NCBI GenBank assembly: GCA_048622595.1 | Contig: JBMCUM010000001.1 | Coordinates: forward strand, 1-29,086 | DNA: 29,086 nt | Reading direction: 5' to 3' | From: Planctomycetota bacterium | GTDB lineage: Bacteria > Planctomycetota > Phycisphaerae > SM23-33 | Part shown: in pieces, positions 4,795 through 20,246 of the stretch | Numbering within the stretch: position 1 is the stretch's first letter | Layout of the letters: each line of letters begins with the position of its first letter | Made by a program: the position numbers and the translations under genes | The notes under the pieces: model-generated | Databases searched by the model: none | Seen by the model: the letters and a program-made list of their open reading frames with translations, nothing else | Told to the model about the DNA's origin: nothing

Positions 4795-5754
4795 ATGACC
4801 CGCATGCGTATGGCGTGGCTGGCCGCGGGCGCGGTGCTGGCGATGTCGGTCACGGCGCCGGGCGCGGACGACGGAATCGGCCAGGCCGAGCTGGACAAGC
4901 TGGTCGCGCAGGTCGAGGCCAACGCCGAACGCTGGGCGGAGCGGAAAGGCGAGGACCGCTCGGTCGACGAGGCCCTGGAGCATGTGACCTACGGGGCGGA
5001 CTCGGTGGCGCCGTTGCGGCGTGCGATGGCGACTCCGCGAAAGGAGCCGCTGGACCTGTACGTCGCCAACAAGCTGCTCCAGCCCCTGCTGCGCGCCCCG
5101 TCGGAGGTGGTGGCGCAGGTCATCCCGTCCGTGCAGACCCTTCTGGCGAAAAGTCGCCTCACGCCGTTTCCGAACTACCCCGAGAGCTTCCTGAACCAGT
5201 TGAAGCTTCCGGCGAAGCCGGACATGCCCGCCGAGCAGGTCATGGCCCGGGTGGCGGAAATCGAGCGGCGGCGGAAACAGAAGGTGGAGAAGGACCGGAA
5301 GATCGCGATGCACAACGCGGCGGCGGCGCGGCTGATACGGACGGGGGGCAAGCTCCTGCTGTACGCCGACCAGCCGCGGTACGATACGGAGTTCGTCAAG
5401 CTGATCGCCCAGCAGGCCAAACAGAAGTCCAGAAGCTTCGCGGTCCTGCTGGAGGCCCTCAAGGCGGAGGTCCCCAAGCTGCCCCTGCGGCGGGCCCGGG
5501 TTTACTACGGAGCGTTGAAGGAGCTGGGCATGCGCCTGCGATTCCATCGCTTCGAGTACCGGGACTTCACCAAGCCGCACATCCGTGTCGCCGCCAACAG
5601 CAGCTACGGTCGGCAGCGCGGCAAGCCCCAGTGGCGCTACCCGGGCATCGAACTGCTGGAGGTGGTCAACCTTCTGGCGCCCAAGGCCAGCCAGCCCGGG
5701 CTGAACATCCCCTCCAAGGCCGACGTCGACAAACGAGACCCGGACGAGAAATAG
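4795..5754 (+). CDS. Secreted, mostly alpha-helical hypothetical protein (319 aa)
   Basis: Strong RBS AGGAGG; signal peptide MTRMRMAWLAAGAVLAMSVTAPGA; GC3-rich codon usage; no family recognised. Confidence 0.75.
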   Translation: MTRMRMAWLAAGAVLAMSVTAPGADDGIGQAELDKLVAQVEANAERWAERKGEDRSVDEALEHVTYGADSVAPLRRAMATPRKEPLDLYVANKLLQPLLRAPSEVVAQVIPSVQTLLAKSRLTPFPNYPESFLNQLKLPAKPDMPAEQVMARVAEIERRRKQKVEKDRKIAMHNAAAARLIRTGGKLLLYADQPRYDTEFVKLIAQQAKQKSRSFAVLLEALKAEVPKLPLRRARVYYGALKELGMRLRFHRFEYRDFTKPHIRVAANSSYGRQRGKPQWRYPGIELLEVVNLLAPKASQPGLNIPSKADVDKRDPDEK

Positions 5755-16182: not shown

Positions 16183-16776
16183 TTACAGCGAGCCCTTGGT
16201 GGAGGGGACCTCGCCGCCGCGGTCGGGGTCGACGCCCTTGGCCTGGCGCAGCGCCTGAGCGAGCGCCTTGAAGATCGCCTCGGCGACGTGGTGGTCGTTG
16301 ACGCCGTAGGGGACGTTGACGTGGACGTTCATGCCCGCCGTGGCGGCCAGGCGGCGGATGAACTCCTCGACGAGCTGCGTGTCGAACGTTCCGATCTTGT
16401 CGCCGGCGAAGCGGACGTTGTACACGACCGCGGCGCGTCCCGACAGGTCCACCGAGACATTCGCCAGCGCCTCCTCCATGGGCACGCTGGCCGAGCCGTA
16501 GCGGGTCAGACCCGCCTTGTCGCCCAGAGCCTCGTCCAGCGCCTCGCCGAGGCAGATGGCGACGTCCTCGGCCGTGTGATGGTCGTCCACCTCCAGGTCG
16601 CCGGTCGCCTTGACGGTCAGGTCCGACAGGGAGTGCTTGGCGAGATGGTCGAGCATGTGGTCGAGGAAGCCGATGCCGGTGGCGACCTCGGACGTGCCCG
16701 ACCCGTCCAGATCCAGCGTCAGCTCGATCCGGGTCTCTTTCGTCTTGCGGGTGATTGTCGCTTTTCGGTCGTTCAT
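16183..16776 (-). CDS. hisB: Imidazoleglycerol-phosphate dehydratase
   Basis: RKTKETRI, TGIGFLDHML, DDHHTAEDVAI, NDHHVAEAIFKA; ATG 16776 (the ORF-track extension reads through repeats). Confidence 0.96.
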   Translation of the reverse strand: MNDRKATITRKTKETRIELTLDLDGSGTSEVATGIGFLDHMLDHLAKHSLSDLTVKATGDLEVDDHHTAEDVAICLGEALDEALGDKAGLTRYGSASVPMEEALANVSVDLSGRAAVVYNVRFAGDKIGTFDTQLVEEFIRRLAATAGMNVHVNVPYGVNDHHVAEAIFKALAQALRQAKGVDPDRGGEVPSTKGSL

Positions 16777-16781
16777 TTTTG

Positions 16782-16823
16782 TGTTCGACGTTTGGGGTTC
16801 GACGTTCGGGGTTCGACGTTCGA
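16782..16823. repeat. Heptamer tandem array, 6 x NGTTCGR (3' arm of cassette A)
   Basis: TGTTCGA CGTTTGG GGTTCGA CGTTCGG GGTTCGA CGTTCGA. Confidence 0.92.
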
Positions 16824-16874
16824 CGCTGCACATTAGGCAACGATGCTCAATGATCGACGCTTTGAGGTTGCCGG

Positions 16875-17291
16875 TCAACTGTTCGGGGATGTTTGTTGGG
16901 GGCAATTGCTGCCCACGCCAATCTGGCGATTGCGGCGCAGGCTCGCAACGAGACCTTTCGTCAGCCCGCGAACGCGATCACCTAGATCGTATGCTCGGCA
17001 TACATGGTCATGTTCCAGATAGCCAAGTTTCTCCGCGGCGATCAATTGCGTCTCCGTTTCGTTAAGAGACCCCAACGCCATGTCAAGAAAACGAAGAAAA
17101 TCGGCCTTGCTGGAGCGGCCATGACCTTCGGCGATGTTGCTGGCGACGCCGACCACCGCCCTTCGGACTTGGGCCCGAAGGCCGAATCGCTCGTCGGGGG
17201 GAAAGGATCGGGTCAGCTTGTAGACTTCGAGCAGCAGATCCATGGCCGCCTGCCATGCTCGCAAGTCCCGATATGACTTGATGGCGGCCAA
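16875..17291 (-). CDS. Four-helix-bundle protein (23S rRNA IVS protein family, PF05635/TIGR02436-like), copy A
   Basis: SYRDLRAWQAAM, YKLT..FPPDERFGL.AQVRRA, SNIAEGHGR, FLRFLDMALGSLNETETQL; probable TTG start at 17291 with GGGAG 7 nt upstream; ~56% GC in sampled lines. Confidence 0.92.
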   Translation of the reverse strand: MAAIKSYRDLRAWQAAMDLLLEVYKLTRSFPPDERFGLRAQVRRAVVGVASNIAEGHGRSSKADFLRFLDMALGSLNETETQLIAAEKLGYLEHDHVCRAYDLGDRVRGLTKGLVASLRRNRQIGVGSNCPQQTSPNS

Positions 17292-17368
17292 TCCGCGCTC
17301 CCCAAGATGTTCGGCGACCTTCCTGGCGCTCGTTCCGGCCTCAAACACTCCACGCCGCCCGTCACCCG

Positions 17369-17403
17369 TCGAACATCGAACGTCGAACACCGAACGTCGA
17401 ACG
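17369..17403. repeat. Heptamer tandem array, 5 x YCGAACR (5' arm of cassette A, inverted relative to 16782-16823)
   Basis: TCGAACA TCGAACG TCGAACA CCGAACG TCGAACG; begins 2 nt after the hisC stop on the minus strand. Confidence 0.92.
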
Positions 17404-17405
17404 TT

Positions 17406-18443
17406 TTACATCAGCGCCTTCAGCAGCGCGGCGTTCTGCTCGTCGGTCCCGACGGTGATCCGCAGCTTGTCGTCGAGGCGCGGGGCTTGGAAGTATCGAA
17501 CCAGAATGCCGGAATCCTTGAGCATCGCGTGGACCGCGGCGGCGTCGCCTCCGCCGGGTCGGGCCAGCACGAAGTTCGCCTGCGAGTCCCACACCCGCCA
17601 GCCCATCGCCCGCAGCCCTGCCGTCAGCTCCGCCCGGGCGGCGCGGACCCGCTCGACGTTGGCGTCCTTCCAGTCCGCGTCGCGCAGCGCCGCTGCGCCC
17701 AGGGCGGCCGGCAGGGCGCCGACGTTGTAGATCTGCTTGGTTTTGCACAGCGCCTCCAGCAGCGCCGGACGGGCGACGGCGAAGCCGACGCGCAGCCCGG
17801 CCAGCGAGTAGCCCTTCGACAGCGTCCGCAGGACGATGACGTTGTCACAGCGCTCGACCAGCCCCAGGGCGGTCTCGTCGGCGAAGTCCACGTACGCCTC
17901 GTCGACGACCAGCAGCCCCGAAAGCCGTTCGGCCAACTCGCCCAGTTGCTCCGTCGGCGCCGCCGTGCCCGACGGGCTGTTCGGGTTGGCCACGAACGTC
18001 ACGGCCGCGCCGGACTCGGCGAGCGCGTCGACGGGAAGGGCGTAGTCCTCGCCGTAGGGCACCTCCAGGGGACCGGCGGTCTCGACCTGCGCCTGGGTGC
18101 GATAGTAGGTGAACGTCGGGACGGGGCAGGCGACGAGCCGCCGGGGCGCGCACGCGGCGCGGGCGATCATCATGATCGCATCGTCGCTCCCGTTGCCCGG
18201 AAGGATCCACCCGGGCGGAACGTCCATCGCCTCGGCCGCCGCTTGGCGGAGCACACCGGCCGTGGCGTCCGGGTAGACCCGCAGCGTCTCGGCGTCGAAC
18301 GTGGCCAGGGCCTCGGCGACCCGCGGCGAGGGGGGGTACGGATTCTCGTTGGTGTTGAGCTTGATGACCTCGGCGCCGGCGGGCGGCTGGGCACCGGGGA
18401 CGTAGGCGGCCATCTGCTCGATATTGTCGCGGAAGAAAGACAT
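17406..18443 (-). CDS. hisC: Histidinol-phosphate aminotransferase
   Basis: KLNTNENPYPP, NGSDD, NPNSPSG, VVDEAY, RTLSKGYSLAGLRVG (PLP lysine). Confidence 0.95.
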   Translation of the reverse strand: MSFFRDNIEQMAAYVPGAQPPAGAEVIKLNTNENPYPPSPRVAEALATFDAETLRVYPDATAGVLRQAAAEAMDVPPGWILPGNGSDDAIMMIARAACAPRRLVACPVPTFTYYRTQAQVETAGPLEVPYGEDYALPVDALAESGAAVTFVANPNSPSGTAAPTEQLGELAERLSGLLVVDEAYVDFADETALGLVERCDNVIVLRTLSKGYSLAGLRVGFAVARPALLEALCKTKQIYNVGALPAALGAAALRDADWKDANVERVRAARAELTAGLRAMGWRVWDSQANFVLARPGGGDAAAVHAMLKDSGILVRYFQAPRLDDKLRITVGTDEQNAALLKALM

Positions 18444-18452
18444 AACGGCGGG

Positions 18453-18507
18453 TCTTAGGTCTTAGGTCTTAGTGATAGGGCTGAGGCCTGAGAACTGAGG
18501 GCTGAGG
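18453..18507. repeat. Heptamer arrays 3 x TCTTAGG and 4 x NCTGAGR (3' arm of cassette B)
   Basis: TCTTAGG TCTTAGG TCTTAGT (18453-18473); GCTGAGG CCTGAGA ACTGAGG GCTGAGG (18480-18507), abutting the four-helix-bundle stop codon. Confidence 0.92.
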
Positions 18508-18891
18508 TTACCGAGGCGGCGTTTTACCCTCGAGTTTCATAATCAGGCCCTTGACGATCCTTTGCACTTCGTCGGCAATTGTGATCAGTTTCGCTGTCTT
18601 GTCGGCACTGGCGAATCCCAGTTGTTGGGCCAAGATGATCTGGGTCTCCACTTCGCTGGCGGATGCCCTCGCAATATCGAGAAACCTTACATAGTCGTGC
18701 TTGGATCTGCGTCCATGTCCTTCGGCGATGTTGCTGGGAACACTCACCGCCGCGCGACGGACTTGCGCAGTTAGCCCGAAGCGTTCGGCGCTTGGGAAAG
18801 CCGCCGTCAGTTTATAGGTTTCACAGGCCAGCTCCATTGCCCGTGGCCAGGCTATCAGCCCTTTGAAGCCGCTGTTTTGCCCCACACTCAT
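18508..18891 (-). CDS. Four-helix-bundle protein (23S rRNA IVS protein family), copy B (127 aa)
   Basis: LIAWPRAMEL, YKLTAAFPSAERFGLTAQVRRAAVSVPSNIAEGHGR, RFLDIARAS..EVETQ; purine-rich RBS; ~53% GC in sampled lines. Confidence 0.93.
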   Translation of the reverse strand: MSVGQNSGFKGLIAWPRAMELACETYKLTAAFPSAERFGLTAQVRRAAVSVPSNIAEGHGRRSKHDYVRFLDIARASASEVETQIILAQQLGFASADKTAKLITIADEVQRIVKGLIMKLEGKTPPR

Positions 18892-18899
18892 GGACCTTT

Positions 18900-18927
18900 C
18901 CTCTGCCCTCAGCCCTCAGTCCTCCGC
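18900..18927. repeat. Heptamer array, 4 x CCTCNGY (5' arm of cassette B), overlapping the hisD stop
   Basis: CCTCTGC CCTCAGC CCTCAGT CCTCCGC; the hisD TGA is at 18909-18911. Confidence 0.88.
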
Positions 18928-20246
18928 TCGACCGCCGCGGCGTGGGCGGTCAGCCCCTCCCGGCGGGCGAAGTCGGCCACGTCCGCCGCGTCGGCGGCCA
19001 GAGCGTCGGCGTCGTAGCGGACCACGCTGGAGGCCTTGAGGAAGTCGTTGCAGCTCAGCGGACCGGAGAACCGCGCCGTCGTGCCCGTGGGAAGCACGTG
19101 CGACGGTCCCGCGTAGTAATCGCCCACCGGAACGGGCGTGTGGGCGCCGACGAAGATCGCCCCGGCGTTGCGGATTCTCGCCAGGGCGCCCTCGTCGTCG
19201 GCCGTGATGATCTGAAGGTGCTCCGGGGCGAAGGCGTTGGCGACGTCCGCCGCGGCGTCCAGGTCGGGCGCGACGATGACGACCGAGTACTTGTCGATGC
19301 CGTGGCGTGCGGCGTCGGCCCGACCCAGTGCGTCGAGCTGCCTGTCGATCTCGGCGGCGACGGCGCCGGCCAGTCCGGGCGAGGTCGTCACCAGCACGGC
19401 CGATCCGGGGTCGTGTTCCGTCTGGGCGAGCATGTCGACGGCGACCCAGGCCGGCTCGGCGGTCTCGTCGGCGACGATGAGCACCTCGCTGGGCCCGGCG
19501 ATGGCGTCAATGCCGACGCGTCCGAACAACTGGCGTTTGGCCTCGGCGATATAGGCGTTGCCCGGCCCGACGATCTTGTCCACCCGGGGGATGTCGTCGG
19601 TGCCCACCGCCGCGGCCGCCAAGCCCGCAACGCCGCTGACGCGATACACCGTCCGCACGCCCAGCAGCTCGGCCACCGCCGCGATCATCGGATGCACCGA
19701 GCCGGCGTGCGTCGGCGGGGAGATCATCACGACCTCGCCCACGCCGGCGACCTGCGCGGGAATCACCGTCATCAGCACGGAGGACGGATAGACCGCCCGC
19801 CCGCCGGGCACGTAGACGGCCGCGCGATCGACCGGCGTGTAGCGCACGGCCAGTTTCCGCCCGTCGCGGGACAGCTCCGGCGGGTCGGCGATGCGGATGT
19901 GCTCCTGGTACGCGCGGATGTTGGCGGTCGCCCGCTCGATCAGCCCGATGAACCGCCCGTCGCGCTTGCGGAAGTCGTCCAGGGCGCCCGCCATCTCGTC
20001 GCCCGGTACGCGAATCCCGTCCGGCGTGAGCGTCACGTCGTGCAGGCGCGCGGTCTGCTCGATGACGGCGTCCGTTCCGTCCCGCTCGACGGCCTCGATC
20101 GCCTCGGCCACCGTCTGACGCACCGCGGCGCGGTCGCGGCGCTGTGCGCCCGAGGCGGTCAGGTTCCCTTCGGTCAGCCGCTCGATGGCGCGAAGCACGC
20201 GCGCATCCTCCAGCGGTCTGTCGGACTGGATGATCTCGACGGGCAT
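18909..20246 (-). CDS. hisD: Histidinol dehydrogenase (~445 aa)
   Basis: YVPGG, GPGNAYIAEAK, IAGPSEV, AQTEH, APEHL, GDYYAGPSHVLPT; start MPVEII at 20246. Confidence 0.96.
   Translation of the reverse strand: MPVEIIQSDRPLEDARVLRAIERLTEGNLTASGAQRRDRAAVRQTVAEAIEAVERDGTDAVIEQTARLHDVTLTPDGIRVPGDEMAGALDDFRKRDGRFIGLIERATANIRAYQEHIRIADPPELSRDGRKLAVRYTPVDRAAVYVPGGRAVYPSSVLMTVIPAQVAGVGEVVMISPPTHAGSVHPMIAAVAELLGVRTVYRVSGVAGLAAAAVGTDDIPRVDKIVGPGNAYIAEAKRQLFGRVGIDAIAGPSEVLIVADETAEPAWVAVDMLAQTEHDPGSAVLVTTSPGLAGAVAAEIDRQLDALGRADAARHGIDKYSVVIVAPDLDAAADVANAFAPEHLQIITADDEGALARIRNAGAIFVGAHTPVPVGDYYAGPSHVLPTGTTARFSGPLSCNDFLKASSVVRYDADALAADAADVADFARREGLTAHAAAVERRTEG

Follow-up and report, generated by a model that had tools for sequence, protein, structure and literature searches.

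How does a small gene of foreign character come to lie inside a histidine operon, enclosed by an inverted repeat that also encodes the end of the host gene before it, and what becomes of it there? This question is raised by the junction between hisD and hisC in a stretch of 29,086 nucleotides (nt) from a Planctomycetota bacterium (contig JBMCUM010000001.1), hereafter the window, to whose positions the coordinates refer; all genes in the part described are on the minus strand. Between the hisD TGA and the hisC start there are 465 nt with one open reading frame (ORF) inside, at 18508-18891. It encodes 127 amino acids (aa) and belongs to PF05635, the family of proteins encoded in intervening sequences (IVS) of 23S rRNA. 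Tandem heptamers flank it on both sides in inverted orientation. The hisD-hisC cassette is one member of a recurrent design, because 48 of the 62 genes of this family surveyed in related genomes are armed in this way. We regard it as somewhat more probable than otherwise that the cassette is an old, tolerated passenger of the his operon, selfish or neutral, whose arms would fold the insert out of the his mRNA, with cleavage by RNase III as the likeliest fate.

Anatomy of the cassette

The features of the junction, in the order of transcription, are as follows.

18909-20246, minus strand: hisD, histidinol dehydrogenase, its start near 20246 being approximate (PF00815 4.7e-139, TIGR00069 1.6e-132).
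18900-18927, minus strand: upstream (5') arm, in the mRNA sense the four heptamer units GCGGAGG, ACTGAGG, GCTGAGG and GCAGAGG (repeat search, Tandem Repeats Finder (TRF), fold).
18892-18906, minus strand: leader of 15 nt between the perfect arm and the cargo ATG, with the Shine-Dalgarno (SD)-like GAGGAAAGG (direct reading).
18508-18891, minus strand: cargo gene of the 23S rRNA IVS-protein family, 384 nt with its stop, 127 aa (PF05635 2e-36, TIGR02436 1.7e-35).
18480-18507, minus strand: downstream (3') arm, in the mRNA sense CCTCAGC, CCTCAGT, TCTCAGG and CCTCAGC (repeat search, TRF, fold).
18451-18473, minus strand: array without a partner, made of three TAAGACC units that read TCTTAGG on the opposite strand (TRF, comparison with locus L007 of the congener G002).
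17406-18443, minus strand: hisC, histidinol-phosphate aminotransferase, the downstream host gene (TIGR01141 4.9e-90, PF00155 1.5e-57).

An earlier note on this DNA had described a perfect 14-bp inverted repeat that encloses exactly the cargo, and both parts of the description hold. The plus strand at 18494-18507 reads ACTGAGGGCTGAGG, its exact reverse complement lies at 18907-18920, and the 399 nt enclosed (18508-18906) are the 384-nt ORF plus the 15-nt leader. The inverted repeat can be extended to 18 nt at 94% and to 28 nt at 82% complementarity. TRF finds tandem heptamers of period 7 at 18900-18924 (3.6 copies) and at 18477-18507 (4.4 copies), besides the separate perfect array near hisC (3.1 copies). 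In the predicted RNA fold 18 unbroken pairs, 17 Watson-Crick and one G-U, join 18907-18924 of the 5' arm with 18490-18507 of the 3' arm, and they are present in both the minimum free energy and the centroid structure. The 3' arm begins immediately past the cargo TAA. The TAAGACC array stops 9 nt before the hisC ATG and gives TAA in all three frames; as the note had stated it lacks a partner arm, none of two or more units (with at most two mismatches) being present anywhere on the contig.

The upstream arm is at the same time coding sequence of the host. Direct reading bears out that hisD ends in repeat units: its 3' end is CGG AGG ACT GAG GGC TGA, with the stop at 18911-18909 inside the arm. 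The last three codons, ACT GAG GGC, and the TGA are heptamer units of the arm, the first unit corresponds to the conserved hisD codons E-R-R, and the tail beyond the conserved AVERR is TEG*. From this arrangement it could be proposed that translation of the cargo is coupled to that of hisD. A ribosome terminating at the hisD UGA would melt the helix and either re-initiate at the cargo AUG, 17 nt on, or allow the loading of a 30S subunit there; the closed helix on an untranslated mRNA would hinder cargo initiation. The stop inside the arm, its short distance of 17 nt from the ATG and a GAGG spaced 8 nt from the same ATG all suit such a coupling. The position of that GAGG differs from what had been claimed. 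The final perfect unit, which had been named as the source of the ribosome binding site, has its GAGG 15 nt off the ATG, whereas the well-spaced one (18900-18903) is part of GCAGAGG, a degenerate fourth unit that the perfect repeat does not include. From the end of the helix to the ATG there are 15 nt, and in the predicted fold the well-spaced GAGG pairs locally within the loop and not with the 3' arm; it is thus not sequestered by the stem, which speaks against the coupling. The final leader bases, AGGTCC, are similar to one unit of the second heptamer kind, as judged by comparison with the arm units of G002.

The assignment of the cargo to its family is firm, with 124.9 bits for PF05635 (cut-off 33.8) over profile positions 3-105 of 106 and 121.5 bits for TIGR02436 (cut-off 24). 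The closest solved structure is PDB 2GSC (XCC0516), a pentameric four-helix bundle, at 6.7e-27. The ORF is intact and the RxxxSxxxNxxE core is kept, read as R-AAV-S-VPS-N-IA-E; judged from its sequence, the protein is probably still functional in the present genome. Homologues bear Planctomycetota/Phycisphaerae names, and the DNA appears to stem from a hypersaline microbial mat. A search of 5.8 billion proteins gave a nearest protein just 61% identical, so there is no sign of recent copying. The G+C content at third codon positions (GC3) is 0.63 in the cargo, 0.63 in the cargo of a second cassette between hisC and hisB (cassette A) and 0.64 in the G002 cargo, and 0.91-0.93 in hisC and hisB (hisC 0.92). 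Residue 15 of the cargo (18846-18848) is Pro, in AWPRAM, and most of the relatives compared have Gln there (AWQKAM or AWQRAM), a difference that might point mildly to relaxed constraint in helix 1.

Heptamer-armed genes of the PF05635 family

The survey covered 14 genomes of the family or order, namely the own genome (a 1.9-Mb assembly, 64% complete, 70% GC), G001, G002, G008 and G018, then nine more. The inverted arms have a period of 7 and rarely of 6-10. Of the family genes, 19 of 25 are armed in the first five genomes and 29 of 37 in the nine further ones, where 26 of the 29 have period 7. The own genome has five PF05635 genes, all with heptamer arrays nearby. Four of them have clearly inverted arms, with a different unit in each, and the fifth has downstream arrays only. 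The hisD-hisC cassette is itself a heptamer-armed PF05635 gene that fills the spacer between co-directional host genes. In-frame stops were present in 4 of the 62 genes. Gene-less heptamer hairpins also exist in the own genome, both in intergenic DNA and within long ORFs.

It might be argued that such a structure has no function at all, the inverted repeat being a chance product of slippage-prone microsatellites beside a small gene. Perfect 14-bp inverted repeats with loops of 200-700 nt are indeed common in this genome, with 73 observed against about 29 expected from base composition, and several bacteria are known to have an excess of heptamer repeats (PMC4692102). However, the 13-mer of a unit pair, with at most two mismatches, has six matches in the window against 1.04 expected, and all six are in the two arms. 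The arms abut the ORF exactly, the layout is repeated through one gene family, and the same layout is found in the rRNA intervening sequences of that family (PMC4990558). The inverted repeat is therefore non-random, as arms that abut ORF ends, period 7 and recurrence together show, and to chance we give hardly any weight.

The armed cassettes share further properties which bear on the proposed coupling. Host stops were placed relative to the 5' arm in 18 cassettes, drawn from the 19 that are armed in five related genomes; 9 of them precede the arm by 0-6 nt and 4-5 fall inside it, together at least 13 of 18. Purines predominate in the 5' arm of 38 of 48 cassettes (p ~1e-5), and SD-core 4-mers number 50 in 5' arms against 4 in 3' arms. 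These counts favour the coupling, but the purine and SD biases are confounded and related copies are not independent. In addition, the leader from arm to start measures 8-109 nt in most other cassettes, too long for strict termination-reinitiation. Coupled translation is thus an unlikely explanation, though one that we would not neglect. Supply of stop codons by the 5' arms was considered as well (99 stop triplets against 58, 26 cassettes against 5); it is confounded with purine richness and is not claimed separately.

The hisD-hisC junction in related genomes

The junction was compared in 26 genomes of the family or order, 23 of them outside the genus. A PF05635 gene at hisD-hisC was found only in the three members of the genus (the own genome, G001 and G002), and arrays of the CTGAGG type at this place are likewise restricted to these three. 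The earlier note had tied the hisD terminus to the cassette, and the comparison of hisD C-termini agrees with this, as neither the TEG* tail nor CTGAGG arrays occur in cargo-less relatives (0 of 23 junctions outside the genus). Past the conserved AV.RR the tails of hisD differ from genome to genome, both in how long they are and in sequence; those at L010 and L023 look built from local repeats. Junctions of ancestral appearance have a 4-nt overlap (ATGA or GTGA) or are shorter than 60 nt. Since all three members of the genus carry the PF05635 gene and CTGAGG units at the junction and none outside the genus does, the cassette dates back to an ancestor common to the three known species. No PF05635 gene was seen near hisC at 80 distant metagenomic hisC loci, and scans of metagenomes and genome contigs with hisC for closer relatives gave nothing above 58% identity, in collections that may lack records near this genome. 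Four DNA sequencing runs yielded no clean empty-site joint for the cassette, only the probable source contig and fragments of other organisms.

Other genera hold different inserts at the same junction, and repeated colonisation of hisD-hisC is for this reason well supported by the sequences compared. In G009 (L020, 1090-1500) and G010 (L028) a single small gene of the GxxExxY family (TIGR04256, 1e-35 to 3e-38) is flanked by CGCGAATTA-type arrays in inverted orientation, which reach directly to the host genes. These cassettes resemble ours in place and layout and differ in a PD-(D/E)XK-like cargo, not a four-helix bundle, and in an arm period of about 8-9; no paper on GxxExxY hairpin cassettes was found. 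Gene-less repeat hairpins occupy the junction in G006, G011, G017 and G021, a direct array in G016 and a 296-nt palindrome in G004. The empty hairpin of G006 (L015) consists of GGTGAGA/GGTTAGA units, which match those of filled PF05635 cassettes at G006:C16 and G011:C22. Repeated use of the junction had been suggested before from the unpartnered array, and it is now supported by the arms of G002, the GxxExxY cassettes and the gene-less hairpins.

The two congeners display the cassette in other states. In G002 (L007) seven units of the GGTCTTA type precede the cargo and five of the TAAGACC type follow it. This arm unit is the unit of the unpartnered array in the window, including the CAC that precedes it, and just after the hisD stop of G002 there are two ACTGAGG units, here without a partner. 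In G001 a long CTGAGG 5' array is followed by a cargo with an in-frame TAG and a GC3 of 0.74 and by a 3' arm of about two units; this genome also has a truncated cargo at its hisC-hisB junction. Since the common ancestor, arm turnover has thus involved two heptamer kinds, and one of the copies is decaying. As G002 uses the same unit for both arms, the unpartnered array, which is homologous to the 3' arm of G002, is the surviving half of a second arm pair. The idea that it is the scar of an earlier cassette is thereby broadly borne out, yet it is too simple, as the order of arrays fits neither of the plain histories and the two heptamer kinds stand together as composite arms at other loci. Neither a simple nested ancestor (A B cargo B' A') nor one of tandem hairpins yields the succession seen in the window (A, then cargo, A' and B') unless extra events are assumed.

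Identities of hisC and hisD group the own species with G002 and place G001 as the outgroup. The cargo tree pairs the own cargo weakly with that of G001 (support 80/82), and the approximately unbiased test for one clade of all three gave p 0.41. G002 may have kept its gene with changed arms or may have acquired a new cassette; the cargo tree fits either. Composite arms are known from other loci, nested as A-B ... B'-A' in G002:C39 and as an A-B half-arm in own C69. The nested arms of G002:C39 (L059, 850-1560) are ACTGAGG, AGGTCYC ... GGGACCT, CCTCAGY and enclose about 600 nt, in which the sole sizeable ORF encodes an antisense protein of 88 aa that is not PF05635 and by eye is CBM48-like (carbohydrate-binding).

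These comparisons raise the possibility that the arms act on DNA. They could be hairpin or homology sites by which cassettes are copied into repeat-bearing junctions, or their complementarity could arise by template switching, and the RNA helix would then be a by-product. Heptamer kinds recur across loci as gene-less hairpins and as armed cassettes, with CTGAGG-type arrays at own C54, C67 and C69 and TCTTAGG-type arrays at C69 and C186, where the unit stands alone as an empty hairpin; G002 has 24 matches to the TCTTAGG pattern against 0 for the control. The G006 hairpin sharing its units with a filled cassette elsewhere in that genome, and orthologous cassettes that differ in their arms and yet keep complementarity, point in the same direction. 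So do the mismatches within arms. A sense-strand wobble test for G-U over A-C mismatches gave 47:21 in the first five genomes (13 cassettes against 1), but in the replication with nine genomes the two were symmetric at 55:54 (9 cassettes against 12), and with a combined p of ~0.05 and a sign test of 0.18 the excess was rejected. However, no recombinase, target duplication or recent copy was found, though no search aimed at transposases was made; the orientation of the gene relative to the purine-rich arm is strongly non-random, which argues for a strand-specific constraint at the level of RNA or expression; and simple insertion into a nested hairpin does not predict the order A, cargo, A', B'. 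Arms working at the DNA level alone appear to us less likely still than coupled translation.

Other repeat structures were noted in these genomes. Cassette A (16777-17405) holds a second PF05635 gene between hisC and hisB, within 36-nt inverted GTTCGAC arms. Its orthologues in G001, G002 and G008 have AGGTCGA-type arms, and the own 3' arm (CGTCGAA units) resembles the 5' arm of the relatives, as if arm polarity had switched. A salt-lake metagenome contig from a different study, with a depth of 22.6, joins both cassette-A arrays (16826/17367) with 12 other letters between them; with 28 nt on its shorter side, this join could come from a different organism that has an empty hairpin of the same unit, and need not be an empty site. 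A gene-less CTGAGG-type hairpin (own C54:5179-5265) and a CTCCGAA array (5709-5739) lie inside an open frame of 1316 aa and are read through in frame, giving a peptide like RRAEAREPRTEDKTAAAESSALSPRFSAL. AGGTCGA/TCGACGT arrays (own C199:1659-1720) likewise lie inside an open frame of 1013 aa. Near-identical PF05635 domains truncated at profile position 82 are present at own C58:8628-8873 and G002:C45:2254-2499; they overlap the end of a larger upstream ORF, have no upstream arm and are followed by ATCTCAA arrays and a proline/alanine-rich tail.

Probable fate of the insert in RNA, and its known relatives

What could happen to the cassette in the cell is suggested by its position in the operon. 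The cassette contains no sigma-70-like promoter site and no intrinsic-terminator-like site, and co-transcription with the his genes is therefore the simplest inference. No Rfam family, rRNA included, was found in 16600-19100, and a sub-threshold riboswitch match inside hisC was taken as chance. The cassette would be transcribed as part of the his mRNA, its arms would pair into a helix of 18 bp (imperfectly 28 bp), and the insert of 399 nt would become a closed loop. RNase III could then cleave the arm helix and so either cut the insert out or split the hisD-hisC transcript. By analogy with known intervening sequences this cleavage is the likeliest event at the RNA level, a proposal that we hold with slightly less than even confidence. 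RNase III (TIGR02191) was present in all five near-complete relatives tested (G001, G002, G008, G017 and G018). The upstream arm serves also as the tail and stop of hisD, and ahead of hisC the 3' arrays place a stop in every frame. A passenger is suggested because the arms have been swapped and the gene is decaying in sister species, and the GC3 of 0.63 against 0.92-0.93 in hisC and hisB gives the cargo a foreign character. The sequence fits an insert with no role in histidine synthesis. We infer that the arms pair as RNA in vivo and that the insert is selfish.

Several observations weigh against this explanation of a passenger removed at the RNA level. The intact ORF with its conserved core fits a protein still under selection, not pure junk. 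The arms are the shortest among the armed copies of the own genome, G001, G002, G008 and G018, and the fold of the whole 506-nt region has a z-score of only -1.84. Substrates of RNase III usually extend over about two helical turns, for which 18 unbroken pairs are slightly short, and the enzyme was not found in the own genome, which is 64% complete. As no G-U excess was reproducible, pairing could be kept at the DNA level. Finally, neither movement nor a target duplication nor a near-identical copy was seen.

Among known systems, the IVS of Coxiella and Leptospira that RNase III excises comes closest. The S23p IVS of Coxiella burnetii, which is the one member of this design with experimental data, has a terminal stem of 28 bp and carries GACAGAT heptamers ahead of its ORF; RNase III cuts it out (Warrier et al. 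2016, PMC4990558). The cut removes the SD sequence, and the protein is apparently not made (PMC4990558). ORF-bearing 23S rRNA IVS are also present in Leptospira, Brucella and Xanthomonas, and their origin and function have been open for about 30 years (PMC4990558, citing Ralph & McClelland 1993). The his cassette is similar in having a PF05635 protein as the sole ORF of an element of about 430-490 nt, with terminal inverted repeats whose pairing encloses the ORF in a stem (of 28 bp in Coxiella, and of 18 unbroken or 28 imperfect pairs in the his cassette) and 5' tandem heptamers, variable in number, just before the start codon. Decay of the ORF in some lineages is a further likeness, seen in G001 for the his cassette and in strain AuQ01 for Coxiella. 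The differences are that the his cassette lies at an operon junction and not in helix 25/45 of 23S rRNA, that both its arms are wholly heptamer arrays, that the upstream arm encodes the last codons and stop of the host gene, and that a second, unpartnered array of another unit is present. Excision by RNase III was demonstrated in Coxiella, and here it would follow by analogy. Because of its location outside 23S rRNA we would file the his cassette as a variant of the IVS and not as a member.

Heptamer repeats as such have been described from intergenic DNA, as GGGAATC in Xanthomonas (PMC4692102), GGGACCG in Geobacter metallireducens (PMC2700814) and, in cyanobacteria and Beggiatoaceae, as short tandemly repeated repetitive (STRR) sequences and TAACTGA (PMC4679880). 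They too are period-7 arrays, of 2-26 units, mostly intergenic and near the end of the upstream ORF, they vary in length and sequence among close relatives, and Xanthomonas has 70-75 convergent (inverted) pairs per genome. In the passages searched the arrays are not tied to an enclosed gene family. One unit dominates each published genome, whereas here nearly every cassette has its own unit. Genes annotated 23S_rRNA_IVP were reported inside operons, for example between cmr3 and cmr2 of CRISPR-Cas loci (Zhang & Ye, PMC3936711). There also a family gene with the conserved RxxxSxxxNxxE core lies between co-directional genes of an unrelated operon; the passages searched describe no flanking repeats or hairpin and suggest a functional link to the host operon. 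The operon of the his cassette is, by contrast, one of histidine biosynthesis, and its insert varies between congeners. A search of the literature for a link between the PF05635 family and heptamers or tandem repeats gave nothing on point.

Two other identities were considered and set aside. Avd, the accessory protein of diversity-generating retroelements, has been named as related to the family (PMC10053308); like the cargo it is small, and the two fall in the same Pfam family or superfamily. The immediate neighbours of the cargo are hisD and hisC, and next to it there is neither a reverse transcriptase nor a template/variable repeat, a negative that covers the locus and not the genome as a whole. 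A transposon or miniature inverted-repeat transposable element does not agree with a nearest protein at 61% identity, with arms that are unique to the locus apart from short arrays and with the lack of a direct repeat flanking the arms, though no transposase search was made.

It could also be imagined that heptamer-armed cassettes are mobile or exchangeable modules. Scattered arrays of the same unit (empty hairpins, half-arms and composites) would be landing pads, into and out of which cargo genes such as PF05635, GxxExxY and others would be copied through template switching or through recombination guided by the arms. Protection of the host operon would be a second task of the arms, through their stops, SD-like purine runs and the folding or cutting out of the insert, and the three congeners would be successive frames of one process. 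We offer this broader picture as speculation that is rather unlikely to be right.

What is new here, as read from the sequences, is that the unpartnered TCTTAGG array corresponds to the arms of G002, that G001 has a decaying copy, that other inserts are present at the junction and that no cargo-less relative has the CTGAGG tail. A gene inside a heptamer hairpin within an ordinary biosynthetic operon means that this module is not a peculiarity of rRNA. It should be noted for annotation that C-terminal residues and stops of host genes beside such cassettes are repeat-derived. The junction provides a natural time series: one species has an intact copy with one arm pair, its sister the other pair and a third species a copy in decay, and in other genera the cargo is of another kind or the hairpins stand empty. 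It becomes directly testable how arms turn over, how cargo is exchanged and how the unexplained heptamer repeats of bacteria relate to this protein family. The main interest of the hisD-hisC cassette is that three species show, at a single junction, arms that turn over and a copy that decays.

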